DNA of 64,000 bases, taken from Escherichia coli. GTDB taxonomy: Bacteria; Pseudomonadota; Gammaproteobacteria; Enterobacterales; Enterobacteriaceae. The number at the start of each line of letters is the position of its first letter. Position 1 is the first letter of the stretch. The position numbers and the translations under genes were made by a program. The stretch lies in assembly GCF_003790525.1 (NCBI RefSeq), contig NZ_CP033635.1. One strand, given 5' to 3'. Shown piece by piece: positions 11,649 to 61,339 of the stretch. A model generated the notes under the pieces. The model saw only the letters and a program-made list of their open reading frames with translations. It searched no databases and had not been told where the DNA came from.

Positions 11649-11753
11649 TAAGGCTCCTGTAAAATCGTTCGAAGCAGGGAAAATAACGCATGAGGCTACC
11701 TTGTATCCATTGCTTCTGGCAACATTAAGTCTCAAATTTTCAAAGGGTGGAAG

Positions 11754-12398
11754 ATGGCTCGCACAAAACTGAAATTCCGGCTGCATCGGGCAGTGATTGT
11801 CCTGTTCTGTCTCGCCTTGTTAGTGGCGCTGATGCAGGGGGCGTCATGGTTTAGTCAAAACCACCAGCGACAGCGTAATCCACAGCTGGAAGAACTGGCC
11901 CGCACCCTGGCGCGTCAGGTAACGCTGAATGTTGCACCGCTGATGCGTACCGACTCACCGGATGAAAAACGTATTCAGGCGATCCTTGATCAGTTAACGG
12001 ATGAAAGCCGCATCCTCGACGCGGGCGTGTATGACGAACAAGGCGATCTTATCGCCCGTTCTGGCGAAAGCGTCGAAGTGCGCGACCGGTTGGCGCTCGA
12101 CGGTAAAAAAGCGGGCGGCTATTTTAACCAGCAGATTGTCGAACCCATTGCGGGTAAAAACGGACCGCTCGGCTATCTGCGCCTGACGCTCGACACCCAT
12201 ACGCTCGCCACCGAAGCCCAACAGGTGGATAACACCACTAACATTTTACGCCTGATGTTGCTGCTCTCGCTGGCAATCGGCGTAGTGCTGACCCGTACGC
12301 TGCTACAGGGTAAACGCACCCGCTGGCAGCAATCGCCCTTCCTGTTAACCGCCAGCAAACCGGTGCCGGAAGAGGAAGAAAGCGAGAAAAAAGAGTGA
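11754..12398 (+). CDS. ytjB: Inner-membrane protein YtjB (Smp)
   Basis: 214-aa ORF MARTKLKFRLHRAVIVLFCLALL; matches YtjB. Confidence 0.85.
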   Translation: MARTKLKFRLHRAVIVLFCLALLVALMQGASWFSQNHQRQRNPQLEELARTLARQVTLNVAPLMRTDSPDEKRIQAILDQLTDESRILDAGVYDEQGDLIARSGESVEVRDRLALDGKKAGGYFNQQIVEPIAGKNGPLGYLRLTLDTHTLATEAQQVDNTTNILRLMLLLSLAIGVVLTRTLLQGKRTRWQQSPFLLTASKPVPEEEESEKKE

Positions 12399-12425
12399 CC
12401 CATTACTACAAGAAAGGAAATCGTT

Positions 12426-13442
12426 ATGTCCACATTACGCCTGCTCATCTCTGACTCTTACGACCCGTGGTTTAACCTGGCGGTGGAAGAGTGTATTTTT
12501 CGCCAGATGCCCGCCACGCAGCGCGTTCTGTTTCTCTGGCGCAATGCCGACACCGTGGTGATTGGTCGCGCACAGAACCCGTGGAAAGAGTGTAATACCC
12601 GGCGGATGGAAGAAGATAACGTCCGCCTGGCGCGGCGCAGCAGCGGTGGCGGCGCGGTGTTCCACGATCTCGGTAATACCTGCTTTACCTTTATGGCTGG
12701 CAAGCCGGAGTACGATAAAACTATCTCCACGTCGATTGTGCTCAATGCTCTGAACGCGCTCGGCGTCAGCGCCGAAGCGTCCGGCCGTAACGATCTGGTG
12801 GTGAAAACCGCCGAAGGCGACCGCAAAGTCTCAGGCTCAGCCTATCGCGAAACTAAAGATCGCGGCTTCCATCATGGCACCTTGCTACTCAATGCTGACC
12901 TTAGCCGTCTGGCAAACTATCTCAACCCGGATAAAAAGAAACTGGCGGCGAAAGGCATTACGTCGGTACGTTCCCGCGTGACCAACCTCACCGAGCTGCT
13001 GCCGGGGATCACCCATGAGCAGGTTTGCGAGGCCATAACCGAGGCCTTTTTCGCCCATTATGGCGAGCGCGTGGAAGCGGAAATCATCTCCCCGGACAAA
13101 ACGCCAGACTTGCCGAACTTCGCCGAAACCTTTGCCCGTCAGAGTAGCTGGGAGTGGAACTTCGGTCAGGCTCCGGCGTTCTCGCATCTGCTGGATGAAC
13201 GCTTCACCTGGGGCGGCGTGGAACTGCATTTCGACGTTGAAAAAGGCCATATCACCCGCGCCCAGGTGTTTACCGACAGCCTCAACCCCGCACCTCTGGA
13301 AGCTCTCGCCGGGCGACTGCAAGGCTGCCTGTACCGCGCGGATATGCTGCAACAGGAGTGCGAAGCGCTGTTGGTTGACTTCCCGGAACAGGAAAAAGAG
13401 CTACGGGAGTTGTCGACGTGGATAGCGGGGGCGGTAAGGTAA
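12426..13442 (+). CDS. lplA: Lipoate-protein ligase A
   Basis: 338-aa [32 protein letters not shown]; matches LplA. Confidence 0.95.
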
Positions 13443-29432: not shown

Positions 29433-30221
29433 ATGGCCTATCGTTCCGCACCGCTCTATGAAGATGTTATCTGGCGAACGCATCTCCAGCCGCAGGATGC
29501 TGGGCTTGCACAAGCCGTACGGGCGACGATCGCCGAACATCGTGAACATTTGCTGGAGTTTATCCGCCTGGATGAACCCGCTCCGCTTAACGCCATGACG
29601 CTGGCGCAATGGTCATCACCGAATGCGCTAAGTTCTCTACTCGCGGTCTATTCCGATCATATCTATCGCAACCAACCTTTGATGATCCGCGAGAACAAAC
29701 CGCTGATCTCACTATGGGCACAATGGTATATCGGCCTGATGGTGCCACCATTAATGTTGGCGCTGCTGACGCAGGAAAAAGCATTAGATGTGTCGCCGGA
29801 ACATTTCCACGTTGAGTTTCACGAAACCGGACGCGCCGCCTGTTTCTGGGTCGATGTGTGTGAAGATAAAAACGCAACACCACATTCGCCGCAGCAGCGA
29901 ATGGAAACGTTAATCAGCCAGGCGCTGGTTCCGGTTGTGCAGGCATTAGAAGCGACGGGAGAGATCAACGGCAAACTTATCTGGAGTAATACCGGTTATT
30001 TGATCAACTGGTATCTCACTGAGATGAAGCAGCTGCTTGGCGAGGCGACGGTTGAATCGCTGCGCCATGCCCTCTTTTTTGAGAAAATGCTCACGAACGG
30101 TGAAGATAATCCACTCTGGCGTACCGTGGTACTGCGCGACGGCCTGCTGGTGCGCCGGACCTGCTGCCAGCGTTATCGCTTACCGGATGTGCAGCAATGT
30201 GGTGACTGTACGCTGAAATAG
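29433..30221 (+). CDS. fhuF: Ferric siderophore reductase FhuF (2Fe-2S)
   Basis: 262-aa ORF with C-terminal C-C-x10-C-x2-C cluster (RRTCCQRYRLPDVQQCGDCTLK). Confidence 0.95.
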   Translation: MAYRSAPLYEDVIWRTHLQPQDAGLAQAVRATIAEHREHLLEFIRLDEPAPLNAMTLAQWSSPNALSSLLAVYSDHIYRNQPLMIRENKPLISLWAQWYIGLMVPPLMLALLTQEKALDVSPEHFHVEFHETGRAACFWVDVCEDKNATPHSPQQRMETLISQALVPVVQALEATGEINGKLIWSNTGYLINWYLTEMKQLLGEATVESLRHALFFEKMLTNGEDNPLWRTVVLRDGLLVRRTCCQRYRLPDVQQCGDCTLK

Positions 30222-30259
30222 AAAAATTTGCCGGGGAAGTAAACCCGGCATTAAGCGTA

Positions 30260-30937
30260 TTAATAGGGGTGCAACACGTTACTTGCTTCGCAATGACGCA
30301 TACATAACAGAATGTCTGCGGCCTCCAACAACCCTGCATCAGAACTGACGCCCAGTTTCGACATCACATTAAATTTATGTGCACGGATCGTTTTGATATT
30401 GCGTTTAAGCTGCTCGGCAATTTGTGTCATTGAGTAGCCACGCGACATAAAGCGCAATATTTCTCTCTCCGTCGGGCTTAACGTCCGGCTTTGGTTAATG
30501 TACCACTGATTGTTCAGTCGATCGGTCGCCTGACGTACACCATTTAATGACAAAAAGAGTTCCTGATGAAAAATCTCCAGCGTTGACGCTTTACTTAATA
30601 CACCGTCCAGCGGTGATGGCGACAATGAACCAATCAGCCGAGCTTCAATATCATCATCCGCAATAACTAAACGCCGGGTACGCGGAAACTTAATCGCCAG
30701 TTCAGTCAGGCAGGATAATCCCTCTCTGCGCGCACTTCTCATGGCAGAAAAAGAAAAAATGACCGCCGCAAACGAGATCCGCGACATGGCATCCTGAAAT
30801 GACTCCTGACTGGTATAGGTATGGAGCTTATAAGGGTTACCCGCAAACTTTCTGAATAAACTCTCAATACCGATACTGCTCATGACGCATTTTTCTATGA
30901 GTGCGACATTTCTCTTCTTAATTCGGCTGTGTTCCAT
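30260..30937 (-). CDS. bglJ: LuxR-family transcriptional regulator BglJ
   Basis: 225-aa ORF with C-terminal LuxR HTH ([24 protein letters not shown]). Confidence 0.9.
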
Positions 30938-31620
30938 TCTGCGGCATCTCCATAAACAGAAGGCAAGTTAAGTTCTCTTGCACCCTGCGCGCTATTTATC
31001 CATGCATACATTTCAGCGTTGCTGTGAATTGCCAGTCGACGCATCGCACTGTTTTTTTGGGCGCTGATAGTTTTATTACTTTTCTTAAGCAATGAAGCTA
31101 TCTGGTTGATGCCCCATCCTTTACCTAATAGCCGCAGCACTTTGCGCTCTGAAAGAGTGAGAATGACGGAGCGATAGCTAAAATCATGAGTTTCAGTCAT
31201 TGCCGGAGAGGTCAGCATGGCGCTGATACGCTCTGCGTGCGTATTGCCGGAACGTACGGTCTTGACCAGATTCTCAATGGGTTCAACATCAGACAATAAC
31301 GTCGCCGTAGGGCACATAAGCAGTTCTACTGCCTGGGAATACCAGGAGCGTGACACCATGAAAACCCAGTGAATTTCCCGATATTGCGAGATTAAAGAAT
31401 AATAATGTTCACAAACAGAACGTGGATCTTCACTTTCACCGGCTAAATCAGCAATGACTAATCCGGAACGACGTAATTGTAATAAGGTAAGGTCCTCCGC
31501 AGAGGCGCTGGATATTATTTCATATTCAGGGAAGTGAGTCCTCATGACCTCTTTTAACCCTGCTTGCATAACAGGTATTTTACTGATAACAATTCCATTT
31601 TTGCAGCATCCTGGCAACAT
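30895..31620 (-). CDS. yjjQ: LuxR-family transcriptional regulator YjjQ
   Basis: 241-aa ORF with LuxR HTH ([22 protein letters not shown]); overlaps bglJ start. Confidence 0.9.
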
Positions 31621-32237
31621 ATTTCCTCCACATCCACTGTCTAAAAATCATGATGGTTTATTCAGGATATTCATTCCTTAAATGTTTCCAGCAAATTAAT
31701 AGATTAAGCGAATAAATTATCCTTAGCATTCACTTTCATATCAGCATACTCCTGCTGCACAACAACTCCACTGCATGTGTCAGAAGGTTAGCATCAAATG
31801 ATAACCTGGTGAAATAGCCTGGAGACATTTAAAATATCTACATTAAGTTGTTAGAAATACTTAATGAAAAACAGAATTCTCATTCACTTAATTTATAATT
31901 AACTGATATCCCTTCCCGCAGGATGCAAAATCACACAATCAATATTTATTCAATAAAATCTGATAGTTTTAACTTGTTAAAATTAAAAAACGCGCCCAGT
32001 TATCTTTTATCCTGATTCGTAAGGGCTAAACAATAAATTCATTATAGTGATAATATTCATGCGATAATTTGTTTGCGGCGAGAGATAATTCGCTTTTAAC
32101 ACCGAGCTTCTCCCGATAACCAGGATTAATCAGCGCAATTTTGATCTTAACCTGCCGCAAAACAACCGCGCTTCATGATACAAATGGATTCTCATTATCT
32201 GAACAATACGCAGCACGTCTATGACAAAGGGCGAGTT
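31621..32237. promoter_or_regulatory. AT-rich divergent yjjQ/yjjP intergenic control region
   Basis: About 600 bp of strongly AT-rich non-coding DNA between divergent genes; nucleoid-protein-silenced character is inferred. Confidence 0.4.
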
Positions 32238-33008
32238 ATGCAAACTGAGCAACAGCGAGCCGTAACACGGCTTTGTATCCAGTGTGGATTATTTCTTTTG
32301 CAACATGGTGCGGAAAGCGCGTTGGTTGATGAGCTTTCCTCACGACTGGGTCGGGCGTTGGGAATGGACAGCGTCGAAAGTTCTATCTCTTCGAACGCCA
32401 TAGTGCTGACAACTATTAAAGATGGGCAATGCCTGACATCTACACGTAAAAATCACGATCGCGGCATTAATATGCATGTGGTGACTGAAGTCCAGCACAT
32501 TGTGATTCTGGCGGAGCACCATCTGCTGGATTACAAAGGCGTAGAGAAACGATTTAGCCAAATTCAGCCATTACGTTACCCAAGATGGCTGGTAGCCTTA
32601 ATGGTTGGCCTTTCCTGCGCCTGTTTCTGTAAACTCAATAAAGGTGGCTGGGATGGTGCCGTCATCACCTTCTTTGCCAGTACGGCCGCGATGTATAACC
32701 GCCAGCTACTGGCACAACGTCATCTTCATCCACAGATCAACTTTTGCCTCACCGCTTTCGCCGCCACCACCATTTCCGGATTGCTTTTGCAACTTCCCAC
32801 TTTCAGCAATACCCCCACCATTGCGATGGCCGCCAGCGTTCTGCTGCTGGTGCCGGGCTTTCCGTTGATAAATGCCGTCGCCGATATGTTTAAAGGCCAC
32901 ATCAATACCGGACTGGCACGCTGGGCGATCGCCAGTCTGCTGACACTGGCTACCTGTGTCGGCGTAGTAATGGCACTGACGATTTGGGGGCTACGCGGAT
33001 GGGTGTGA
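32238..33008 (+). CDS. yjjP: Inner-membrane protein YjjP (ThrE family, DUF1212)
   Basis: ORF track 32175..33008; conserved start [30 protein letters not shown]. Confidence 0.85.
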
Positions 33009-33472
33009 TCGAATTTCTGTTAGCGTTGGCGCAGGATATGATCCTCGCCGCCATTCCAGCGGTCGGCTTTGCAATGGTGTTCAACGTTCCCGTGCGGGCG
33101 TTACGCTGGTGTGCGCTGCTTGGCTCGATAGGTCATGGTTCCCGAATGATCTTAATGACCAGCGGGTTGAATATTGAGTGGTCAACTTTTATGGCTTCTA
33201 TGCTGGTCGGCACCATTGGTATTCAATGGTCGCGCTGGTATCTGGCACATCCGAAAGTGTTTACCGTGGCGGCTGTTATCCCTATGTTCCCTGGCATATC
33301 AGCTTATACCGCAATGATTTCGGCGGTAAAAATCAGCCAGCTAGGTTACAGCGAACCGTTGATGATTACCCTGTTAACCAACTTTCTTACAGCTTCATCG
33401 ATTGTTGGTGCGTTATCCATCGGTCTTTCCATTCCTGGATTATGGTTGTACCGCAAGCGCCCTCGCGTATAA
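32999..33472 (+). CDS. yjjB: Inner-membrane protein YjjB (DUF3815)
   Basis: ORF track 32984..33472; conserved start [20 protein letters not shown]; overlaps yjjP end. Confidence 0.85.
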
Positions 33473-33578
33473 AATTGCCTCGCTTAAGCACACGGATGAG
33501 AGACAGCCTCCTCTCCTCCGTGTGTTACTATAAAAGTTATCTCCCTTCTCGTTCATCGTTCCATATTTGAGAAACAGT

Positions 33579-46473: not shown

Positions 46474-47925
46474 TTAATGTGAGGTCTGCCGGCGCAGGAA
46501 GCGTCCCGCACGGCCTGTAATATGTTTATCGGGACCATAGCTCATAACGCCGTTCACCATCACCGCCTCAATGCCATCTGCCGGGCGTTTGGGATCAGAA
46601 AAGCTGGCAACATCACGAATGGTTTGTGGATCGAACAACACCAGGTCCGCAAAATAGCCAACTTTCACCAGCCCACGCTGGGGCAGGCGAAAACGGCTGG
46701 CAGAAAGCCCGGTCATTTTGTGGATAGCCGTGGTCAGTGGGAATAAGCCTTCATCACGGCAATAGTGGCCCAGCACGCGAGGGAAGGCGCCCCATAAACG
46801 TGGATGCGGCATGGGATCATTGGGCAGGCCGTCAGAGCCAATCATACTGACCGGATAACTCAACACTCGGCGGACGTCGCGCTCGTCCATGTTGTAATAG
46901 ATAGCCCCGGCAGGCATTAGCAGCTTCGCGGCCTCCAGCATACTCATCTGCCAGTCGATGGCGATTTGCGCCAGTGTTTTCCCGGCCTGCTGCGGATGTG
47001 TTTGTGACCAGGTGATCACAATATCGAATTCGTCGGTGACTTGTTTGAGATCCAGCGTTGAAGAGCTGGCTGAGTAAGGGTAGACATCGCAGCCAATTTC
47101 CTGGTGTTGACGCATTTGGTCAAAAAAGGCCAACGTTTCTTTTGTCCGCCCCCAGTTTTTCGCCCCGGCGCATTTATGGTGGGAAACCACGACAGGCACT
47201 TTGCCATGACGCCCAATACGAAACGCCTCATCCAGGGCATCGAGAATCGGTTCAAATTCAGAACGCAGATGGGTGGTATAAACGCCCTTCTCACCGGCTA
47301 ATTCTTCCGCCAGCGCCATGACTTCTTCGGTAGTCGCCTGAAATGCCGTTGCATAGGCCAGCCCGGAACTTAACCCCAGCGCCCCCTGACTCAACGCCAG
47401 ACGTAAGTCGGCACGCATAGCGGCAATTTCATCCACCGTCGCCGGGCGAAACAGGTCGTCCATATGGTTATTACGCAGCGCCGTATGACCAATCAGCGTG
47501 CCAACGTTCAGTGACGGCCTGGCTGCTTCCACTGCCTGGGCATAGCTTTCAACGGTAGGATAAATAAAGTGCTCTGCTTCCCCCAACAGATTCATCGGGT
47601 CAGGAACTTCACCTTTCATTTTCGCCGACGCCGCACTAATCCCGCAGTTACCGACAATCACCGTAGTGATCCCCTGGCTGATCTTTGGCAGATATTCCGG
47701 GATGCGAATAACGTTGATATCGTCATGGGTATGAACGTCGATAAACCCTGGTGCCAGCACCCGCCCTTCCCCGTCAATGACCTGCTGCGCCGTAACGTTA
47801 AGCGCAGGGGCAATATCGACAATCCGATCACCTGTTATTGCCACGTCACCGCGAAATTCAGGGCCGCCGCTACCGTCGATAACGGTCACATTTTTGATTA
47901 ACCAGTCAACCTGCATGTTCGTCAC
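46474..47925 (-). CDS. N-acyl-D-amino-acid deacylase (D-aminoacylase), amidohydrolase superfamily
   Basis: 483-aa ORF with N-terminal IKNVTVIDGSG...GFIDVHTHDD metal-binding motif typical of D-aminoacylases. Confidence 0.8.
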   Translation of the reverse strand: MTNMQVDWLIKNVTVIDGSGGPEFRGDVAITGDRIVDIAPALNVTAQQVIDGEGRVLAPGFIDVHTHDDINVIRIPEYLPKISQGITTVIVGNCGISAASAKMKGEVPDPMNLLGEAEHFIYPTVESYAQAVEAARPSLNVGTLIGHTALRNNHMDDLFRPATVDEIAAMRADLRLALSQGALGLSSGLAYATAFQATTEEVMALAEELAGEKGVYTTHLRSEFEPILDALDEAFRIGRHGKVPVVVSHHKCAGAKNWGRTKETLAFFDQMRQHQEIGCDVYPYSASSSTLDLKQVTDEFDIVITWSQTHPQQAGKTLAQIAIDWQMSMLEAAKLLMPAGAIYYNMDERDVRRVLSYPVSMIGSDGLPNDPMPHPRLWGAFPRVLGHYCRDEGLFPLTTAIHKMTGLSASRFRLPQRGLVKVGYFADLVLFDPQTIRDVASFSDPKRPADGIEAVMVNGVMSYGPDKHITGRAGRFLRRQTSH

Positions 47926-48116
47926 TCCATTTCTGCAATGGTGACAAGTTAACCATTTACAAGGACGAAAAACAGTGGAAAACTACGCAAAACCCAGATG
48001 ATTTTATGATACTTTTATTCATAAATAATAAGATAAATAAACTAAATATTTATATTTCATTTAGTTACAAATGATACTCACATCCGATACGGTGAAAAAC
48101 TTAAAAGGTAAATGTT

Positions 48117-49337
48117 ATGAAATACCACTCAGAACCTCTGGTTCCCCATAAATCTGCCCTGATGCAAATGCCCGCAAATCTCCTTGCCGAAGATGTCTGT
48201 TTACCTGCCGCGATCATTAAAAAGCAGGCCCTGGAGAACAACATTACGTGGATGCAACGCTACGCTGACGCGCGCGGCGTTTCACTGGCACCGCACGGTA
48301 AAACCACCATGACGCCGTGGATTTTTCAGGCGCAGCAGGCGGCTGGTGCCTGGGCAATAGGTGTCGGTAGCGCATGGCAGGCTGGTGCGGCAATGGCGAG
48401 CGGTATTCAGCGAGTGCTGATGGTTAACCAGCTGGTCGGCAAGGCGAATATGCAGTTGATTGCCCAGTTGCAACGACATTACCCGACGGTCGATTTTATC
48501 AGCTGTATCGACAGCATTGAGAACGCCCGCGCTTTGTCTGCCTTTTTTGCCAGTCAGCAACAGACACTGAACGTGATGATTGAGTTGGGTGTCCCCGGCG
48601 GGCGCTGTGGTTGCCGCTCAAGGGATGCCGCACTGACACTGGCTAAACAGGCAGCCCAATTACCGGGGTTACGCCTGCGGGGGCTTGAGTTATATGAAGG
48701 CGTTTTACACGGTGACGATCCACAACCGCAGGTAGAAGCTCTGCTGCGGGATGCCGCACAACTGGCCTGTGATATGGCAAGTCTGGTTGATGGCGAGTTT
48801 ATTCTCACCGGAGCAGGCACGGTCTGGTATGACGTGGTGTGCAATATCTGGCTGGCGGCAGAAAAGCCTGATAACTGCCGCATTGTTATTCGCCCTGGCT
48901 GCTACATCACTCACGACACCGGGATCTACGACGCGGCACAACAACAGTTGCTTGCCCGTGATCCTGTGGCTTGCGATCTGGCAGGCGATCTCACATCTGC
49001 ACTGGAACTGGTCGCCATGGTGCAATCGGTGCCGGAAGCTGATCGTGCGGTGGTTAATTTTGGTAAGCGTGATTGCGCCTTCGACGCCGGACTGCCGCAA
49101 CCAGTCGCCCACTATCGCAACGGCAAATCACTGGCATTTGATCCACAGGCGATTCGCAGTACAGGCATTATGGATCAGCACTGCATGTTGCAGTTGGGTG
49201 CCGACAGCGACGTGCAAGTGGGGGATATTCTGGTGTTTGGCACATCGCATCCGTGCCTGACCTTCGACAAATGGAAAACGTTGTTATTGACTGATGACGA
49301 CTACAACGTACTGGCAGAATTAGACACTCTCTTCTAA
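48117..49337 (+). CDS. DSD1-family PLP enzyme (alanine racemase N-terminal fold; D-serine dehydratase / D-threonine aldolase-like)
   Basis: 406-aa ORF with probable PLP-lysine motif LAPHGKTT; RBS AAGG upstream of ATG; divergent from the aminoacylase gene. Confidence 0.72.
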   Translation: MKYHSEPLVPHKSALMQMPANLLAEDVCLPAAIIKKQALENNITWMQRYADARGVSLAPHGKTTMTPWIFQAQQAAGAWAIGVGSAWQAGAAMASGIQRVLMVNQLVGKANMQLIAQLQRHYPTVDFISCIDSIENARALSAFFASQQQTLNVMIELGVPGGRCGCRSRDAALTLAKQAAQLPGLRLRGLELYEGVLHGDDPQPQVEALLRDAAQLACDMASLVDGEFILTGAGTVWYDVVCNIWLAAEKPDNCRIVIRPGCYITHDTGIYDAAQQQLLARDPVACDLAGDLTSALELVAMVQSVPEADRAVVNFGKRDCAFDAGLPQPVAHYRNGKSLAFDPQAIRSTGIMDQHCMLQLGADSDVQVGDILVFGTSHPCLTFDKWKTLLLTDDDYNVLAELDTLF

Positions 49338-52018: not shown

Positions 52019-52975
52019 ATGAACCCGATTGCAGTTACCCTACTCACCGGTTTTTTAGGCGCGGGCAAAACCACCCTGCTGCGCCATATTCTTAATGAAC
52101 AGCACGGCTACAAAATTGCCGTGATTGAAAACGAATTCGGCGAAGTCTCCGTTGATGATCAACTGATTGGCGATCGCGCCACGCAGATCAAAACGCTGAC
52201 CAACGGCTGCATCTGTTGTTCGCGCTCCAACGAGCTGGAGGACGCGCTACTCGACCTGCTGGATAATCTCGACAAGGGCAATATTCAGTTCGACCGTCTG
52301 GTCATTGAATGCACAGGCATGGCCGATCCCGGCCCGATTATTCAGACCTTTTTCTCCCATGAGATTTTATGCCAGCGTTACCTGCTGGACGGCGTGATTG
52401 CGCTGGTGGATGCGGTACATGCCGATGAGCAGATGAACCAGTTCACCATCGCCCAGTCACAGGTTGGCTACGCCGACCGTATTCTGCTGACTAAAACCGA
52501 CGTCGCAGGTGAAGCAGAAAAACTGCGCGAACGCCTGGCACGCATCAACGCCCGCGCACCGGTCTACACCGTCACCCACGGCGACATCGACCTGGGCCTG
52601 TTGTTCAACACCAACGGTTTTATGCTGGAAGAAAACGTCGTCAGCACCAAACCGCGTTTCCACTTTATCGCGGATAAACAAAACGATATTTCGTCGATTG
52701 TGGTGGAACTGGATTACCCGGTAGATATCAGCGAAGTTTCCCGCGTGATGGAAAACCTGCTGCTGGAATCGGCGGATAAACTGCTGCGTTACAAAGGGAT
52801 GCTGTGGATTGACGGCGAACCTAACCGCCTGCTGTTCCAGGGTGTCCAGCGCCTCTACAGCGCCGACTGGGACAGGCCATGGGGCGATGAAAAACCGCAT
52901 AGCACGATGGTGTTTATCGGGATTCAGCTGCCGGAGGAAGAGATTCGGGCGGCGTTTGCGGGGTTAAGGAAGTAA
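52019..52975 (+). CDS. yjiA: CobW/HypB-family GTPase YjiA
   Basis: ORF track 51935..52975; conserved start MNPIAVTLLTGFLGAGKTTLLRHIL (P-loop) and CxCC motif GCICCS. Confidence 0.9.
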   Translation: MNPIAVTLLTGFLGAGKTTLLRHILNEQHGYKIAVIENEFGEVSVDDQLIGDRATQIKTLTNGCICCSRSNELEDALLDLLDNLDKGNIQFDRLVIECTGMADPGPIIQTFFSHEILCQRYLLDGVIALVDAVHADEQMNQFTIAQSQVGYADRILLTKTDVAGEAEKLRERLARINARAPVYTVTHGDIDLGLLFNTNGFMLEENVVSTKPRFHFIADKQNDISSIVVELDYPVDISEVSRVMENLLLESADKLLRYKGMLWIDGEPNRLLFQGVQRLYSADWDRPWGDEKPHSTMVFIGIQLPEEEIRAAFAGLRK

Positions 52976-53305
52976 TACCCTTAACCTACTAATACGAAGC
53001 GGACGAGGATAAAACCCTATCATTTTCCGTTCGCTTCACTATTTTATTTCGTTCCAACACCCATTAAAATTAAAAATATAATTCTGCCATAATTTCCTGA
53101 ACACAGATGTAATTACATTGCCACCACTCATACTTTTAAAAATAATTTATATGATAGACGTCCTATTGAGGCGTAATAGATGTATTAATTTCCAAATACG
53201 CAAACATTCTGGTACAGTCCAAAAAAGAAAAATCATCAACCAAAACAATCAGCAAATAAATTAACAACGATTGAATCATAATCAACACGAATACAAGAGA
53301 TTAAC

Positions 53306-55156
53306 ATGGCAACAATAATCCCAACAATCAGTAGCTGCAACGATAAAATTACTGCCGGAGAGAAAAGGCTGGCAAGAATTCTGGAAAGAGGACTAGGCGA
53401 AGAGTGCTGCTGTTGGTATGACATTCCCACGGGTGATAAGCATCTTCACCCAGATTTTATGATACTTTCGCCAGAAAAAGGCATTATTTTTCTCGAGGTA
53501 AAAGATTGGTTTATTACAAAAATAAAAAAAGCCAACAAGTCTAATGTGTTGTATGAGACACAAAATGGTATTCAATCTTTAAAGAATCCGATAGAACAAG
53601 TTAGGCGATATGCTTTCGAAGCTGTAAACCAGTTAAAAAAAGACCCCCTATTGTGCCAACAGGATGATCGTTACAATGGCAATCTTCTTTTCCCCTATGG
53701 ATATGGCGTCTACTTTAGTAATATTACACGAGAAGCATTAAATAATAAATTTACTCAAGAAGAGCTGCTCGGGATCTTCCCATCAGATCTCATCATCTGC
53801 AAAGACGAAATAAATGAATTCATGTCAAAAGAGGATGTTTCATCCAAAATACATTCGTTGATTAAATATGACTTCAAATGTCATGCTACACAAGAACAGT
53901 TGAACAGGATTAGATGGCACTTATACCCCGATGTCAGAATAGAAAGGGAAAAGAGAAGTAAAAACCGTGATGAATTTAGTGTCGATGCACCAACCATCAT
54001 TTCTATCCTGGATACTCAACAGGAACAACTTGCCAGAAGTATGAGAGATGGCCACCGGATCATTCATGGTGTTGCAGGTTCAGGGAAGACATTGATCCTC
54101 TATCATCGCTGTCAGGAATTAGCGAAAAAAAATGACAGCGAAAAGCCAATTCTTGTCATTTGCTACAATATTACTTTAGCCAAAAAACTTCGGTCGATGT
54201 TCATCAATCATCCCTTTGCAGAGAAAATAAAGGTTAAAAATTTTCATGCTTGGTGTTTCCAACAAATTAAAGAAAACAAGATCACTATTCCAGAAGGGGA
54301 TAATATTTTTGAAAATATGGAGCTAGCGTTGACTGATGGTTTCAAGACAGGAAAAATAAAACCAGAACAATACAGCGCTGTATTAATTGATGAAGGACAT
54401 GATTTTAAGCCAGAATGGTTAAAAATCCTGGCAAAAATGACTGACTCTCAGGACGAGAATTTGCTATTCCTTTATGATGATGCTCAGTCAATTTACCAAA
54501 AAAAGAAAGCATTAGACTTTACACTGTCCAGCGTAGATATTAAAGCGACAGGACGCACAACCATTCTTAATATAAATTATAGAAACACACAGCAAATCCT
54601 ACACTTTGCCAGTTGCATTGCATTTAATTATCTTAATAGCCATATCGATAGTTCTTTAACCTATCATAAACCTGCTGCGGGAGGAATGAATGGCGATTAT
54701 CCCAACCTTGAACATTTCGACACACAGGACGAAGAAATAGCACGAGCAGTCGAATGGATTACAGAGCAAAATGAACAAGGGATTCCGTGGTCTGAAATTG
54801 CTATACTAAGTCCATCAACTCACACCCTTTCTAACTCTCTAAGCTCTGTACTTGAATCGAAAAACATCCCCTTTAATCTTATTGTAAGCTCTGCAGATAA
54901 AAAGTCCTGGACGCCAGAACAAGAGCGTATTTCTGTTATGCCATTACCCAGCAGTAAAGGACTTGAGTTTCACTCAGTTGTCATTATTGATGCAGCGAGA
55001 ACACGGGATAATAGCGATGATTTGAGTGAGGATATAAAGAGACTCTATGTAGGTTTTACCCGAGCACGTTGCAATCTCTTGGTAACCTTGCACGGTGAAG
55101 GTGCGTTAAATGAGCATCTACTAAAAACCTATGAGCAAAGCCCACAATATATGTAA
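53306..55156 (+). CDS. NERD (PD-(D/E)xK-like nuclease) domain fused to SF1 UvrD-like helicase/ATPase, 616 aa; candidate single-gene defence protein
   Basis: N-terminal HPDFMILSPEKGIIFLEVKDW (D..E.K nuclease-like core); Walker A GVAGSGKT (aa 255-262), Walker B LIDEGHDF, motif VI-like VGFTRAR; gene is low-GC and sits where K-12 has mrr-hsdRMS. Confidence 0.8.
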   Translation: MATIIPTISSCNDKITAGEKRLARILERGLGEECCCWYDIPTGDKHLHPDFMILSPEKGIIFLEVKDWFITKIKKANKSNVLYETQNGIQSLKNPIEQVRRYAFEAVNQLKKDPLLCQQDDRYNGNLLFPYGYGVYFSNITREALNNKFTQEELLGIFPSDLIICKDEINEFMSKEDVSSKIHSLIKYDFKCHATQEQLNRIRWHLYPDVRIEREKRSKNRDEFSVDAPTIISILDTQQEQLARSMRDGHRIIHGVAGSGKTLILYHRCQELAKKNDSEKPILVICYNITLAKKLRSMFINHPFAEKIKVKNFHAWCFQQIKENKITIPEGDNIFENMELALTDGFKTGKIKPEQYSAVLIDEGHDFKPEWLKILAKMTDSQDENLLFLYDDAQSIYQKKKALDFTLSSVDIKATGRTTILNINYRNTQQILHFASCIAFNYLNSHIDSSLTYHKPAAGGMNGDYPNLEHFDTQDEEIARAVEWITEQNEQGIPWSEIAILSPSTHTLSNSLSSVLESKNIPFNLIVSSADKKSWTPEQERISVMPLPSSKGLEFHSVVIIDAARTRDNSDDLSEDIKRLYVGFTRARCNLLVTLHGEGALNEHLLKTYEQSPQYM

Positions 55157-55174
55157 AAATGATAAATTATCTCC

Positions 55175-55206
55175 ATAACGCCCGGTAACGCTGTACCGGG
55201 CGTTAT
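55175..55206 (+). terminator. Stem-loop downstream of the NERD-helicase gene (possible terminator; no clear T-run)
   Basis: 13-bp perfect inverted repeat ATAACGCCCGGTA ... TACCGGGCGTTAT with 6-nt loop. Confidence 0.4.
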
Positions 55207-55288
55207 GAATGTATATCTAAGATATTAGTCACGCCTGATAGCCGCTACCAAAAACGCCATCATCTCCCTCTCATCTTTGCTGTGATAA

Positions 55289-55594
55289 AAGCGTACCATT
55301 TTGCTGTTAAATTCCAGCGCTTTAGCCACTGGAATTAACAAGTTCAAACTTCCGACAACGAAGTTCCAGTTATTACAAAAATTACTGGCAAAAGAGATGA
55401 AAAGCGTAGTTGACAACACATCGAAATATACTGACTGGAGTAAACGCGATGATATTAAAGCGAAACTGAAAGTTGAACTTATTCTGCTTCTACACAAGCA
55501 TAAGTTCCCGCCAGTAGCGAATGATGATGTTTATATGGGTGTGCTGGCACAGGCAGAGAATTTTAAAGAACATCATATGAGTGCTTTAAATTAA
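55289..55594 (+). pseudogene. Possible 3' remnant of a type I restriction enzyme R-subunit (HsdR C-terminal region)
   Basis: Frame opens only at 55289 after a stop, no upstream coding partner; product ...TDWSKRDDIKAKLKVELILLLHKHKFPPVANDDVYMGVLAQAENFKEH resembles the conserved HsdR C-terminal YPP-containing motif as recalled. Confidence 0.4.
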
Positions 55595-55713
55595 TTATGA
55601 AGGCCGGATACACTTTGTTATCCGGCCATTGTGAATTAACGTTAATTTCTCTTCCAGATATTTCCAGTAACGCTTTTATTATTTTCTATTTTTAGCTGGA
55701 CTTTCCCTGTATT

Positions 55714-55733: not shown

Positions 55734-55749
55734 ATTTAGCGCGGTGCGA

Positions 55750-55830
55750 ATGTGCGCCAACACACCCGCACCGCTCATCACAATCACTATTTATGGAGAA
55801 TAGTAATCATGACTGACACGCATTCTATTG
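55750..55830 (-). ncRNA. symR: Expected position of SymR antisense sRNA overlapping the symE 5' end (approximate)
   Basis: Placed by established knowledge that SymR is transcribed antisense across the symE RBS and start codon; ends not determined from sequence. Confidence 0.35.
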
Positions 55831-56150
55831 CACAACCGTTCGAAGCAGAAGTCTCCCCGGCAAATAACCGTCAATTAACCGTGAGTTATGCGAGTCGCTA
55901 CCCGGATTACAGCCGTATTCCCGCCATCACCCTGAAAGGTCAGTGGCTGGAAACCGCCGGTTTTGCTACCGGCACGGCGGTAGATGTCAAAGTGATGGAA
56001 GGCTGTATTGTCCTCACCGCCCAACCACCCACCGCCGAAGAGAGCGAACTGATGCAGTCACTGCGCCAGGTGTGCAAGCTGTCAGCGCGTAAACAAAAGC
56101 AGGTGCGGGAATTTATTGGGGTGATTGCCGGTAAACAGAAAGTCGCCTGA
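55809..56150 (+). CDS. symE: SOS-induced type I toxin SymE (YjiW), AbrB/MazE-fold endoribonuclease-like
   Basis: ORF track 55752..56150; conserved start [48 protein letters not shown]. Confidence 0.9.
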
Positions 56151-56196
56151 TACATTGACCCGGTAGCGCCAGTGCTACCGGGTATTATTCGCCGTG

Positions 56197-58290
56197 TTAG
56201 ACCAACGCGCTCTCCATCTGTTTTTCAAATGCCTGACGAATTAATCCCATAACGTAAGGAAGTTGTGCGAGGTCGCTGAAACCAATTTCCACATCACCAT
56301 TGCCCCAGCGCCCAACATTTGTCACATCTTTGGCAATACCTTTCGGATCGACCAGTTCATGAAACTGCATATTAAGCGACAATCGCAGTCGGCTTTTTTG
56401 CGGCACAACATCAACAAAATTCGTTTCCGCTTTAAACGCAATATAGAGCTTCAATACTTCCTGCGTGATCCCTGCGTCCAGGCGCATAACTTCATCGCGA
56501 AGATGATCAAATAACACCCGGCTATGCGAACCATCAGCAAGAAAAGGATAATCACTCAGGCTATAACTGGTTTTGTTTTCAGGCTGCGCCCGATAAACAG
56601 CTAAAACCTCTTCAGGAAGAGCAGGCGCTTGCCAGACCTGAACCGCGAGATCGGCCAGACGATCGGCACGGGCGCGAATGGCGGCTTCATCCCATTTTTC
56701 GCACTGTCCAAGACCGATATTCAAATAAAGCGGGCTATGCTTAAAGCCGTCTTCAATATCGCGTTTTTCCGCGAAAGGTCTGTCACTGTAGCGGGAGTTA
56801 TAGCGCGTTAATGTGAGATTCCCCAACGTATGTAACAGTTCTTTATGCACACGCTGCCAGTCGCTTCCCAGCTCTTCACGCCATTTAGCCGACAAATTTT
56901 CGTTCTGCGGCATAATATGCTCAATCGTAAACTCTTCCACGCGCTCTCTGCGTTTATCGTTTTCCAGTCGTCGTAACCAGTAGCTGCGACTGCGGAAGTT
57001 ATAGAGATCGCGAACTTTTAATTCCCGTTTAAATTCATCATCGTTGGGGAAACGACGATATGAAGGCAGATTCAGAAAATGTACCTGAATACTTTCCAGA
57101 TATTTTTCTTTAATAATGACCTTATAAAAGGTAGCAAACGTCTTGTTAAGAGAATTTGTCGGAATCGCACATACTGCACGGCGGAAAACATAAGATTCAA
57201 TTAAACGAATTATGCTCAGGAAATCTTCGTGAGGCAAATCGCCATTTTTATAGTCATGATAAAGCGCCAGTAAGAAAGGATACGCCACATCGACCTTTAA
57301 CTCGCGCAAATCCTGAAAAGCCGTAGCAAGCGATTTGTCACTTTCTTTACCCAATGCCATTGCACAGTAATACTCCGCGTAGATGTGAATATCTTCAACC
57401 AGGTGATCCACGCCTTTTTCAGCAACACTCTGGCTGCGGGCATGGAGTTTAAATGCCTCATAGACTTCATCTGTACGAGGGATCTCCCCCGTTTTTACCG
57501 TCAGATAATGACGCATAAAGCTGTCAAAATATTCGCTGTAACCTTGCTGACCAAAAGCGACTTCCATTGGACGCCAGTGATCTTCATACAACCGGGTTTG
57601 ATGCTCTGGTTCGAGACCCATCAGAATAAAATTGCGCACCAGATCGGCCTGACTTAACGCCTTACCGGTAGAGTTCATACTTTCAAAAATCAGTTGCGGA
57701 TTATCCTGACCACGATTAAGCGCCACATCGACAATTAATAATTTTGCTAACCCACGACATAAGGGGATCAAGTCATCACCGAGTTTGGCAATTTGCTCAT
57801 CAAAGAAAGTAAAGTTTTCCATTATTCGATGGGAATAGTTTTCTGGCATTGGTCTTTGTTTTATTAACGCCAGCAAACTGTCTTTATCAGTCTCGGTCAG
57901 CAGTAATTTAAATCCTTTCTCGCCGGACTCATAAGGATTGAGTAAATAATAATTACGCAATTTCATTGCTGAAAAGCCATCAAAAACTTCGTCTTCGCCA
58001 AGATGACGCGATAAAGCCTCAATCAGCAACATTGCGGTCGTCAGCCTTTGTTGACCATCAATGACCAGTAACGGAGAAATACCAGAAACCTGATACAACC
58101 CCTGCTCAATATAAACAACCGAACCGATAAAATGCGCTGATATATCGTCACGCTTTCCGGCACGAATGATGTCGTCCCAAAGTTGCCGACATTGTTGTTC
58201 TGTCCATGAATAAGTCCGTTGATAAATGGGAATCACAAACTGCTGCGAACGTTTTAAAAAATCGAGTAGGCGGGCTTCTGTAGCTTTCAT
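56197..58290 (-). CDS. DUF262 (ParB-like NTPase) + DUF1524 (His-Me finger nuclease) fusion, GmrSD-family putative type IV modification-dependent restriction endonuclease
   Basis: 697-aa ORF with N-terminal VIDGQQRLTT (DGQQR motif) and C-terminal EFTIEHIMPQN...H..LGNLTL nuclease motif; convergent with symE, in the slot where K-12 has mcrBC. Confidence 0.78.
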   Translation of the reverse strand: MKATEARLLDFLKRSQQFVIPIYQRTYSWTEQQCRQLWDDIIRAGKRDDISAHFIGSVVYIEQGLYQVSGISPLLVIDGQQRLTTAMLLIEALSRHLGEDEVFDGFSAMKLRNYYLLNPYESGEKGFKLLLTETDKDSLLALIKQRPMPENYSHRIMENFTFFDEQIAKLGDDLIPLCRGLAKLLIVDVALNRGQDNPQLIFESMNSTGKALSQADLVRNFILMGLEPEHQTRLYEDHWRPMEVAFGQQGYSEYFDSFMRHYLTVKTGEIPRTDEVYEAFKLHARSQSVAEKGVDHLVEDIHIYAEYYCAMALGKESDKSLATAFQDLRELKVDVAYPFLLALYHDYKNGDLPHEDFLSIIRLIESYVFRRAVCAIPTNSLNKTFATFYKVIIKEKYLESIQVHFLNLPSYRRFPNDDEFKRELKVRDLYNFRSRSYWLRRLENDKRRERVEEFTIEHIMPQNENLSAKWREELGSDWQRVHKELLHTLGNLTLTRYNSRYSDRPFAEKRDIEDGFKHSPLYLNIGLGQCEKWDEAAIRARADRLADLAVQVWQAPALPEEVLAVYRAQPENKTSYSLSDYPFLADGSHSRVLFDHLRDEVMRLDAGITQEVLKLYIAFKAETNFVDVVPQKSRLRLSLNMQFHELVDPKGIAKDVTNVGRWGNGDVEIGFSDLAQLPYVMGLIRQAFEKQMESALV

Positions 58291-58386
58291 TCTGACGTCT
58301 TTCCGTGAAGCGATGATTTCGCAATAATAACCACTTCCTTGTGGAGGTTATAGAGAAATCCTGTTTATCCGCGACGAACTGCCCCA

Positions 58387-60382: not shown

Positions 60383-61339
60383 TTAGTACTCGATCCATGG
60401 ATCGCGCTTGCTTTCAGGCAAGGGCTGCTCTAATGCCTGCATTTGCTCTGCCGAAAGTCCGGTATATCGTTGTATCCATTCAGGATCCGCCCCATTCTGC
60501 AACAACAATCGGAGGAGGCTCTTTTCCCCTTCTTCTTTCCCTTCTTTCCTCCCCCTCTCCCTTCCCAACAGCCATCCATCATTATGAATTCGCTCTGCAA
60601 TCGTCATTATTCGCTCCCTGTGTTGTGGCATTCGACGGATAAGTTCGCTGATAAACTCATTAAAACGCGCTTCATCGCCAGTCAGTAAAATGTAATTTAA
60701 CAGCGCGGTTATCTGGCTGTCATTAGCGCACCCTGTAACCAGTAATACTGCCAGTTGATCAATAAGCCCCATTAGATCGCGCTGGCGAATATGCTTTTGG
60801 ATCAACTCCAGCAGGGCGACTCTGCGATGCTGCACAATCTCGTCGTCTGGCACGACAGTGACATCCACCAGCGGGAACGCTGCGGTATAAAGCTTCCGCG
60901 CGGTAGCCGGGTCGGCAAATTCATCCAGCCAGCACAAAGACCAGGGGTAAGGACTACGGCTACTGTGATAAAACAGCATCGGGATGACCAGCGGTAGCGG
61001 CCGGCGTTTATCATGCTCGATATGGCGCTGCATCACCGCCATGGAATATCGCATCAGGCGAAAGGCCATATGGATATCCTCGCGGCTCTGATGTTCAATC
61101 ACCACATAAATATAGCCATCTCCTTCGCGGGTCTTTACCGACCACAGAATATCGGAATGTAGCGCCCGCAATTTTTCATCGACAAAGCTGGCGTATTCCA
61201 GTTTTAAGCTGTCGAGATCGCACAGTTCACGTAAATCTTTGGGTAAGTGGATCTCCATAAAATCCCGCGCGGTGTCAGGGTGGGTGAGAAAAGATTTAAA
61301 TAATGCGTCATGCGGCGTGCTGGTCGTGAAGTTTGTCAT
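60383..61339 (-). CDS. rpnD: Rpn-family recombination-promoting nuclease (YhgA-like, PD-(D/E)xK), intact 318-aa copy at the yjiP/yjiQ (rpnD) position
   Basis: [45 protein letters not shown]...[10 protein letters not shown] matches the Rpn/transposase_31 family N-terminus. Confidence 0.85.

Follow-up and report, generated by a model that had tools for sequence, protein, structure and literature searches.

The immigration control region (ICR) of E. coli is described in the literature as a stretch of variable content with a high level of homologous exchange, bounded by the framework genes yjiAXY on one side and yjiPRS/yjiN on the other. The names tied to it are Raleigh (1992), Sibley & Raleigh (2004) and Milkman, with hsd as a 'bastion of polymorphism', and it corresponds to defence hotspot #36 of Hochhauser et al. 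According to a review, a GmrSD homologue takes the place of McrBC in some ICRs. That the ICR is a hypervariable defence island has long been recognised and is not new. A protein family relevant to the locus described below is C3a187, which was defined from three loci as a candidate accessory family of type III CRISPR (Shah et al. 2018).

We analysed an AT-rich block at positions 52976–55700 of a 64,000-nucleotide stretch of E. coli SMS-3-5 DNA (the window), and found that it corresponds to the variable slot on the yjiA side of the ICR (slot A). The gene order in the window is yjiA, the cassette, symE, GmrSD and yjiS-yjiR-rpn-mdtM-yjiN. Compared with the definitions of the ICR, this places slot A between conserved framework, with yjiA(-yjiX-btsT) on one side and yjiS-yjiR-rpn…yjiN on the other. 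In a junction alignment of five alleles, the homology common to all strains stops at the yjiA stop codon (52975/52976), and it returns at 55678–55684 for every E. coli genome compared; the edges that the earlier note had drawn for the block were thus accurate. The framework genes and variable slots are as follows.

52019–52975, plus strand: yjiA, a CobW-family GTPase (Pfam cobW/CobW_C; RefSeq; GC 0.541), the framework gene on the left side of the ICR
52976–55677, no strand assigned: variable slot A, the low-GC block (GC 0.374–0.377), between the breakpoints 52975/52976 and 55678–55684
55738–55814, minus strand: symR antitoxin RNA (Rfam RF01809, 92.8 bits, E 8.8e-18), which opens the conserved middle framework module
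55809–56150, plus strand: symE, a type I toxin (Pfam SymE_toxin; RefSeq; GC 0.543), the conserved framework gene that divides the two variable slots
56127–58375, minus strand: variable slot B, with a homologue of type IV restriction proteins of the GmrSD family (ORF 56197–58290, 697 aa)

In other strains, unrelated gene sets are found at the slot A junctions (brnTA-REase-hsdMSR; Fic-hsdRMS; a deletion allele), and in each case the alleles part from one another at the yjiA stop codon. The SMS-3-5 locus therefore resembles the described ICR in its chromosomal position and framework genes, with symE in the middle, in its cassette-like replacement with sharp junctions and elevated flank divergence, and in carrying restriction-type genes, a remnant of hsdR and a homologue of GmrSD, which are defence genes by homology. 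It differs in its yjiA-proximal occupant, which here is a protein with a NERD domain and a UvrD-like helicase instead of Mrr or a type I restriction–modification (RM) system. In the ICR literature other than Sibley & Raleigh 2004 we found no paper that names a NERD cassette as an ICR occupant, and a 2025 review of the ICR never mentions NERD. The explanation that we favour, and consider likely as a whole, is that the block is a yjiA-proximal ICR cassette in which a NERD-helicase unit, old and spread by recombination, lies over the decayed remains of earlier occupants, with a presumed role in defence and presumed control by H-NS.

The earlier note had proposed a compositional discontinuity at 52976–55700, and the measurements bear this out. 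The block has a GC content of 0.374, the window as a whole one of 0.513, and among sliding windows of 2725 bp (mean 0.512, sd 0.034) the minimum falls on the block (0.373, at start 53001); in a 400-bp profile GC falls from 0.52–0.58 to 0.34–0.41 between about 53000 and 55800. The helicase ORF at 53306–55156 has a GC of 0.382 (z = −5.1) and a GC3 of 0.351 (z = −4.6) relative to the 46 other long ORFs of the window (GC 0.529, sd 0.029; GC3 0.590, sd 0.052), and its synonymous-codon log-likelihood is the second lowest among 48 ORFs (z = −2.4), so that neither its GC nor its codon use is like that of core genes. AGA makes up 37% of its arginine codons (4% elsewhere), CTG 10% of its leucine codons (55% elsewhere) and ATA 22% of its isoleucine codons (4% elsewhere). 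The genes yjiA, btsT (0.560) and symE are host-typical in GC, as had been stated. The GmrSD-like gene, which had also been called typical, is not: its GC is 0.443 and its GC3 0.426. Slot B is a second low-GC cassette (about 44% GC, z about −3), and its ORF matches Pfam GmrSD_N, GmrSD_C and DUF5655, with support from PADLOC.

Slot A itself consists of a self-contained unit, about 2.25 kb long (52976–55224) and made up of an AT-rich leader, the NERD/UvrD-like gene and a hairpin terminator, followed by the scars of former occupants.

52976–53305, plus strand: AT-rich leader, GC 31.6%; two stretches, 53064–53093 and 53118–53146, are candidate sigma-70 promoters by consensus matches only
53306–55156, plus strand: intact 616-aa NERD (PD-(D/E)xK nuclease) and SF1A UvrD-like helicase protein, WP_000190966.1 (Pfam NERD, UvrD-helicase, UvrD_C)
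55174–55207, no strand assigned: hairpin with a perfect 14-bp stem and a 6-nt loop, which likely terminates the helicase gene and marks where its insert ends on the right
55225–55335, minus strand: 3′ remnant of a Fic-family gene with its stop codon, 90% identical in nucleotides to the Fic gene of strain E04
55332–55398, plus strand: hsdR remnant, piece A, 92.5% identical to hsdR of GPEC1210 (positions 11652–11718 of locus L002)
55384–55594, plus strand: hsdR remnant, piece B, which covers the final 70 codons and the stop codon of a gene for a type I R subunit (Pfam T1RH-like_C, 6.7e-18; PADLOC REase_I; a RefSeq pseudogene)
55602–55627, no strand assigned: GC-rich hairpin (GGCCGGAT ... ATCCGGCC) past the hsdR stop, read from the sequence and presumably the old hsdR terminator

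The Fic remnant is also recognisable at the protein level (30/46 residues identical, E 4e-18), and in strain E04 the intact Fic gene directly adjoins yjiA. Piece B of hsdR is 97% identical to the intact hsdR of GPEC1210. The Fic remnant and piece A join at a 4-nt overlap (GAAT), and pieces A and B are joined where about 0.29 kb has been deleted internally, at a direct repeat of 15–17 nt that is imperfect. These matches indicate two earlier occupants of slot A: a Fic gene, formerly right beside yjiA, and a gene for a type I restriction R subunit, formerly right beside symE. The earlier note had missed the identity of the locus as the ICR, as well as the Fic and hsdR origin of what it called the 'downstream fragment'.

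We compared the NERD-helicase with described nuclease–helicase systems. The PADLOC profile C3a187, 'NERD+UvrD', matches it over its full length (residues 1–599, E 1.3e-140), and the two share the same architecture, an N-terminal NERD domain and a C-terminal SF1 helicase. In contrast to the candidate CRISPR association of C3a187, there is no CRISPR-cas near the SMS-3-5 gene, and no cas genes were found in its neighbourhood in the window or in eight homologue loci. With Gabija GajB and RTasNERD-Hel (UG34/DRT) the protein has in common a UvrD-like helicase core. The RTasNERD-Hel profile spans residues 1–594 (E 3.6e-22, far under the C3a187 score), while the GajB models match just parts of the helicase core, again with scores far below that of C3a187. 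A GajA (OLD/TOPRIM) or reverse-transcriptase partner is absent beside the SMS-3-5 gene and in the eight homologue loci; we rejected Gabija, as the neighbours of the SMS-3-5 gene are yjiA and gene remnants, with no GajA. Two further candidates were set aside, ZwsA, a NERD RNA endonuclease of different architecture, and Druantia DruE–DruH, which is unrelated. A search for literature on the NERD-helicase protein or 'NERD helicase' found none.

Nhi is said to have been described by Bari and co-workers in 2022 as a nuclease–helicase immunity protein. The SMS-3-5 gene is likewise a solo gene with a nuclease and an SF1 helicase in one polypeptide, and we favour Nhi/AbiO as a mechanistic analogy. Membership in the Nhi/AbiO family was rejected, because the PADLOC models of Nhi and AbiO match only residues 235–297 around Walker A (E 2.9e-9 and 7.9e-13).

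The protein is under functional constraint. The PD-(D/E)xK triad D50, E64 and K66 is invariant in 25 homologues of 43–64% identity, as are GSGKT 258–262 (Walker A), DEGHD 362–366, R417, R586 and other residues, and the dN/dS of the gene, 0.10–0.15, indicates purifying selection. The NERD-helicase is a candidate single-gene defence protein, as judged from its domains and setting. It is also conceivable, but unlikely, that it is an accessory enzyme of DNA repair or recombination, or a decaying passenger, and not a defence gene. The fold of its AF2 model matches UvrD/PcrA/Rep and SLFN11, so that the closest solved folds include the repair helicases UvrD, PcrA and Rep, the RefSeq name of the protein is '3′-5′ exonuclease', and it is a helicase–nuclease without a known phenotype. 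However, other strains have Mrr, type I RM, BrnTA or Fic in this slot, the homologues are solo genes beside restriction-like genes, and the sporadic distribution is atypical for repair genes. Decay can be discounted, because the catalytic residues are invariant and the dN/dS is low.

As a defence protein, the NERD-helicase would be a stand-alone anti-phage or anti-plasmid effector. It may load on invading or replicating foreign DNA, where the ATP-driven motor would translocate it and the N-terminal nuclease would cut. The AT-rich leader is probably bound by H-NS, which would keep basal expression low. The earlier note had thought xenogeneic silencing probable; the block is 62–68% AT over 2.7 kb, with an especially AT-rich leader, and is plausibly AT-rich enough to be an H-NS target. 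The leader is also the fastest-diverging part of the cassette (91.9% identity, with indels, to that of XH990). A scan of sigma-70 promoters gave 8 sites against 9.7 expected from shuffles, that is, no enrichment, and an Rfam search, in which symR was the sole match, placed no structured RNA in the leader. In one genome an IS1 is inserted within the cassette, and capture of insertion sequences by H-NS-bound DNA has been reported. The block thus resembles xenogeneically silenced islands in its AT-rich tract of at least 1 kb, its AT-rich leader and the IS1 insertion in one genome. It differs from them in that the H-NS high-affinity 10-mer (TCGATAAATT, up to 2 mismatches) is not enriched (4 of the 94 matches in the window fall in the block, in proportion to its length), and in that its gene is under purifying selection. 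The gene is not permanently off, since its dN/dS shows that the protein is under selection.

We analysed the distribution of the cassette in E. coli. The NERD allele of slot A is present in 100 of 5426 complete genomes (1.8%), and is chromosomal every time; E. coli C is absent among the roughly 90 cassette matches listed. Some 900 extra matches obtained with the XH990 query appear to be genomes that carry the related, intact hsdR, and not further copies of the cassette. Relative to E2348/69, there are 11–12 SNPs per 250 bp in the 3′ half of yjiA, 0–3 across 53000–55249, and then a rise. The yjiA alleles are unlinked to the cassette type, and GmrSD is co-carried by 40 of the 100 NERD-cassette genomes, compared with 1358 of 5426 overall, so that the two slots assort independently. 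Homologous recombination, with crossovers in the framework genes or close to them, has therefore carried the cassette from one E. coli lineage to another, as read from three fully compared cassette-bearing loci among the 100, and its transfer is independent of the neighbouring GmrSD slot. The SNP-density step, the unlinked yjiA alleles and the independent assortment of the slots agree with the exchange of foreign-looking DNA within conserved flanks that the earlier note had put forward.

An alternative to this ordinary exchange is a dedicated, semi-site-specific one, in which the neighbouring Rpn (YhgA-like) nuclease promotes RecA-independent replacement of ICR cassettes. An Rpn gene (PF04754, Transposase_31) at 60383–61339, 4.7 kb past the block, indeed belongs to the framework, and the breakpoints fall sharply at the yjiA stop codon. 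A published study found that YjiP/RpnD lifts RecA-independent recombination about 5-fold, and its authors considered site-specific ICR replacement possible. In the same study, however, the action of YjiP was not targeted to the ICR, and site-specific ICR replacement was 0.0% among homologous (RecA+) recombinants. Sharp boundaries, moreover, are expected wherever homology ends. We therefore regard this route as improbable.

Delivery by a mobile element (a P4-like satellite, a transposon or an integrative element) that later lost its machinery is more doubtful still. Such elements are reported to enter hotspot #36: Hochhauser et al. describe P4-like satellites in the interval from yjiA to yjiO, and at the hotspot a transposable element that flanks the type I RM locus; in addition, a Yersinia homologue of the NERD-helicase lies near an integrase. 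Against this, neither edge of the block has an integrase, a tRNA, an att-like repeat or an IS end. Pfam searches detected no integrase or transposase at the edges, no tRNA was found in 40000–64000, and flanking direct repeats amounted to nothing beyond chance 13–18-mers, in line with the absence of an integrase, a transposase or a tRNA-associated att site that had been noted before. All repeats detected were short and in two copies, and a 20-nt inverted pair (55159/55791) is probably due to chance. The junction lies exactly at the yjiA stop codon, the same as in unrelated cassettes, no near-identical copy of the cassette was found on 72,556 plasmids or in 50,697 phage records, and the cassette is just 2.25 kb long, with one gene.

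The earlier note had also called the acquisition 'relatively recent', which does not stand. The dS between SMS-3-5 and XH990, which represent two cassette allele classes, is 0.064 for the NERD gene and 0.059 for btsT; between SMS-3-5 and E2348/69 it is 0.021 against 0.057–0.15. The Fic and hsdR scars are common to every allele that was compared (three loci, in three allele classes), which argues for a single old origin of the cassette. The cassette is thus an old presence/absence polymorphism, with at least three allele classes that carry the same scars. In E. coli the NERD-helicase forms one 90% cluster, followed by a gap; the next closest proteins among 5.8 billion are at most 64% identical. 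Homologues of 57–64% protein identity occupy this locus in Salmonella, Enterobacter, Leclercia-type contigs and Klebsiella aerogenes. Their GC is 35.8–42.8%, while the framework genes beside them have 55.6–60.2% GC and encode proteins that are 80–91% identical. Since these relatives are equally AT-rich, low GC is a stable trait of the gene pool and not a clock of arrival. Beyond the Enterobacteriaceae, solo homologues have neighbours of a defence type: in Serratia a ScoMcrA-like HNH protein, in Yersinia a giant DUF4011 helicase and the integrase, and in Photobacterium a PLD-helicase and a methyltransferase. The least probable explanation, that the block came in recently from a distant donor rich in AT, has not had time to ameliorate and was inserted by recombination in the flanks, would account for the strong compositional contrast, the rarity of the cassette and the single protein cluster with its gap, but it is largely refuted by an allele-class dS as deep as that of core genes, by the identical scars, by the failure to find a donor-like sequence among proteins, plasmids and phages, and by positional homologues in four other genera that are equally AT-rich despite 36–43% protein divergence.

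An old, recombination-spread ICR cassette may have a longer history than that of E. coli. It is possible, and we propose it only tentatively, that the NERD-UvrD cassette is an ancient trans-generic ICR allele, encoding an immune effector that is nuclease and helicase in a single gene, and kept at the slot as a presence/absence polymorphism since before the split of Escherichia, Salmonella, Enterobacter and Klebsiella, at 36–43% GC throughout. The intergeneric protein divergence is roughly what would be expected from the within-species dN/dS, in an estimate that leans partly on general E. coli–Salmonella divergence. However, the same-locus homologues could also stem from repeated insertion with a preference for the site. 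If the trans-generic reading is true, the AT-richness would be no fading signature of a donor; it would be actively maintained, for example by H-NS-dependent control that aids tolerance and switching-on.

These results do not overturn the known picture of the ICR. They flag a candidate single-gene nuclease–helicase in a slot classically held by Mrr/EcoKI, and one carrier of the NERD cassette is E2348/69, an EPEC strain in wide use, in which it lies at NC_011601.1 4,906,434–4,908,840. The scars of Fic and hsdR are a readable record of successive ICR occupants and of illegitimate deletions. With alleles as old as the core divergence of the species, the cassette is a clear case against the use of GC as a clock: low GC here is not a sign of recent arrival.

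The interval 52976-55700, between the yjiA stop codon and symR/symE, has a GC content of 37.4% against 51.3% in the 64-kb window, and a sliding scan at 2725 bp reaches its minimum here (0.373, against a mean of 0.512 and an sd of 0.034). In a 400-bp profile GC falls steeply past ~52900 and comes back up past ~55700; the compositional discontinuity claimed for this interval in an earlier note is thus real, with accurate boundaries. We set the 616-codon helicase gene within it (53306-55156) against 46 further long ORFs from the window. As the note had proposed, the gene is clearly off its surroundings, since its GC (0.382, z = -5.1), its GC3 (0.351, z = -4.6) and its synonymous-codon likelihood, second worst among 48 ORFs, are all atypical; AGA, ATA, CTA and NNA codons are frequent and CTG is scarce. 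The note also took yjiA, btsT, symE and the GmrSD-like gene to be typical of the host. This holds for the first three, which are host-like, but not for the last (GC 0.443, GC3 0.426, z about -3), which is a second low-GC cassette, its recognition being a modest addition of the present analysis. The GmrSD-family ORF (56197-58290, minus strand) is a single uninterrupted 697-aa frame with DUF262, DUF1524 and C-terminal DUF5655 domains; RefSeq splits it into a 388-aa CDS and a 'DUF262 pseudogene', and does so in SMS-3-5, XH990 and every genome among the matches listed, which looks like a systematic annotation artefact. Elsewhere in the window, a second atypical patch lies at ~29500-33500, where minus-strand ORFs 30260-30937 and 30895-31620 (GC 0.45-0.46) have the worst codon-usage fit of the window and the adjoining ORFs at 32175-33472 also fit poorly, and GC dips briefly to 0.395 at 47800-48200, in the intergenic stretch that precedes the gene for an amino-acid deaminase (48117-49337).

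The window is 100% identical to the chromosome of E. coli SMS-3-5 (NC_010498.1). The block lies in the immigration control region (ICR), alias defence hotspot #36, where the order in SMS-3-5 is btsT-yjiX-yjiA, helicase gene, hsdR pseudogene, symE, GmrSD homologue and yjiS-yjiR-rpn-mdtM-yjiN. In K-12 the region contains mrr-hsdRMS-symE-mcrBC, consistent with the ICR literature. That literature describes variable 'migratory' genes set within a conserved gene framework, with evidence of a high rate of homologous exchange. At identical junctions other E. coli genomes hold unrelated content: brnTA-REase-hsdM-hsdS-hsdR in GPEC1210, a decayed set of the same type in SX48, and Fic-hsdR-hsdM-hsdS followed by mcrB in E04. 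WB61 has a deletion allele, in which yjiA and 137 nt of the NERD-cassette leader (9001-9138 of the WB61 locus, window 52977-53114) are fused to 61718, upstream of mdtM, taking out the helicase gene, symE/symR, GmrSD, yjiS, yjiR and rpn. In all alleles compared colinearity ends at the yjiA stop codon, with divergence from the next base, and common homology restarts at 55678-55684, upstream of symR/symE. For this hypervariable defence island, which is well known, a compositional discontinuity is nothing unusual. In E2348/69 (11554-12780 of its locus), the 'framework' side of the ICR has decayed further: an internal stop truncates yjiR, mdtM is absent, and rpn directly abuts what is left of yjiR. 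The features of the block and its downstream neighbours are as follows.

52976-53305, leader, 31.6% GC, with two consensus promoter matches
53306-55156, helicase CDS, N-terminal NERD domain and SF1A UvrD-like helicase
55174-55207, hairpin with a perfect 14-bp stem
55225-55335, minus strand, Fic remnant, the 3' end of a Fic gene with its stop codon
55332-55398, hsdR remnant A, 92.5% identical to GPEC1210 hsdR
55384-55594, hsdR remnant B, 97% identical to GPEC1210 hsdR
55602-55627, hairpin read from the sequence, presumably the old hsdR terminator
55738-55814, symR, by Rfam match
56127 (within the symE 3' end) to 58375, second variable slot (slot B)

The Fic remnant has 90% DNA identity to the E04 Fic gene (30/46 residues in the protein, E 4e-18), which lies 42 nt from yjiA in that strain. 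It overlaps hsdR remnant A by 4 nt, and remnants A and B meet across a ~0.29-kb deletion at an imperfect direct repeat. In the simplest history, the ancestor would have been yjiA, Fic, ... hsdM-hsdS-hsdR, symE; a 2.25-kb helicase unit would then have come to sit between yjiA and Fic, and illegitimate deletions would last have stripped everything from within Fic to within hsdR. This reconstruction is another modest addition of the present analysis. A 20-nt inverted repeat, 80% complementary (55159-55178 and 55791-55810), stands either side of the scar region; its first arm follows closely on the helicase stop and, read on the minus strand, looks like the Shine-Dalgarno and start region of symE, probably by chance.

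The top PADLOC model for the helicase protein was C3a187 'NERD+UvrD' (1.3e-140, full length), a candidate type III CRISPR accessory family without demonstrated function, whereas matches to the GajB, Nhi, AbiO and RT-associated helicase models were partial or weak. Across 25 homologues (43-64% identity) there is no variation in the PD...EVK nuclease triad (D50, E64, K66), Walker A (G258-T262), DEGHD (362-366) or the helicase motifs further on. The family has no solved structure; an AlphaFold model (pLDDT 76.5) matches UvrD, PcrA and Rep and, more loosely, nuclease-plus-helicase Schlafen proteins. Homologues are always solo genes and, outside Enterobacteriaceae, lie beside restriction-like genes. 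On these grounds there is about an even chance that the protein is a stand-alone nuclease-helicase restricting foreign DNA, acting like Nhi but outside the Nhi family.

The note proposed that the block came by homologous recombination within the conserved flanks, and we found three lines of support for this. Relative to E2348/69, there are 11-12 differences per 250 bp in the 3' half of yjiA, 0-3 between 53000 and 55249, and 5-6 beyond; since scar divergence (1.9%) agrees with the helicase gene dS (0.021), recent shared ancestry extends over essentially all of slot A, the block itself. The yjiA alleles of three cassette strains are 20-33/957 nt apart, and stand no closer to one another than to those of strains with other cassettes. 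Finally, slot B assorts independently of slot A, the GmrSD cassette being present in 40 of the 100 NERD-cassette genomes and 1358 of 5426 overall. The neighbouring Rpn nuclease may have a role in cassette exchange, although in the literature its action is not found to be ICR-targeted. Transfer by a mobile element, which the note had discounted, finds no trace: there is no tRNA around the block, no meaningful flanking repeat, no Pfam integrase or transposase at the edges, and no close cassette copy in plasmid (72,556) and phage (50,697) records, the sole long 'plasmid' match, with 64% identity, being to a Klebsiella record of 5.4 Mb. The yjiA 3' half (52500-52975) is itself unusually divergent between strains (yjiA dS 0.10-0.15 versus 0.06 for btsT), with no linkage of alleles to the type of adjoining cassette, in keeping with the 'bastion of polymorphism' that Milkman described around hsd.

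The cassette is found in 100 of 5426 complete E. coli genomes, chromosomal in every case. Identity to the SMS-3-5 copy is at least 99% in 79 of 103 matching genomes and 95-99% in 22; the XH990 copy as query gave 20 genomes with that allele and a further class ~97% identical to both. In one of the 100 carriers, THO-010 (NZ_AP022540.1, 4247284-4250459), IS1 lies within the cassette. Three cassette strains (SMS-3-5, XH990 and E2348/69) were compared fully. The genes upstream of btsT differ among them, and therefore their genomic backgrounds differ, yet the Fic and hsdR scars are identical in all three, which indicates a single origin of the cassette. Between SMS-3-5 and XH990, dS is 0.064 for the helicase gene, 0.059 for btsT and 0.100 for yjiA; between SMS-3-5 and E2348/69 it is 0.021, 0.057 and 0.152, respectively. 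Given these values and a helicase gene dN/dS of 0.10-0.15, the alleles date back as far as the core divergence of the lineages compared, and purifying selection acts on the protein.

The note also proposed probable xenogeneic silencing, which may apply here. H-NS binding of the block is plausible from its AT-rich composition; H-NS motif matches are proportional to block length and so favour neither side. Purifying selection argues that the gene would be expressed under some conditions.

The 'relatively recent' acquisition read from composition does not hold, as allele dS matches that of core genes and AT-rich relatives occupy the same locus in other genera. The best non-E. coli proteins are only 64% identical (among 5.8 billion searched), and relatives come immediately after yjiA in a Leclercia-type contig and Enterobacter kobei, follow yjiA-brnAT in Salmonella, and follow yjiR in Klebsiella aerogenes. 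Upstream of the Salmonella homologue, the intergenic DNA (contig ABHBWR010000020.1, 7564-8000) carries a (GGCATCC)x7 tandem heptamer beside a REP-like GC-rich element. The same-locus relatives have 35.8-42.8% GC, versus 55.6-60.2% for framework neighbours that share 80-91% protein identity with E. coli. Because they are equally AT-rich amid GC-richer neighbours, low GC is a lasting property of the family at the ICR and not a sign of recency. The NERD-UvrD gene, a candidate defence gene, thus appears to be a long-standing, persistently AT-rich ICR resident across genera, a further modest addition to what is known of this island.
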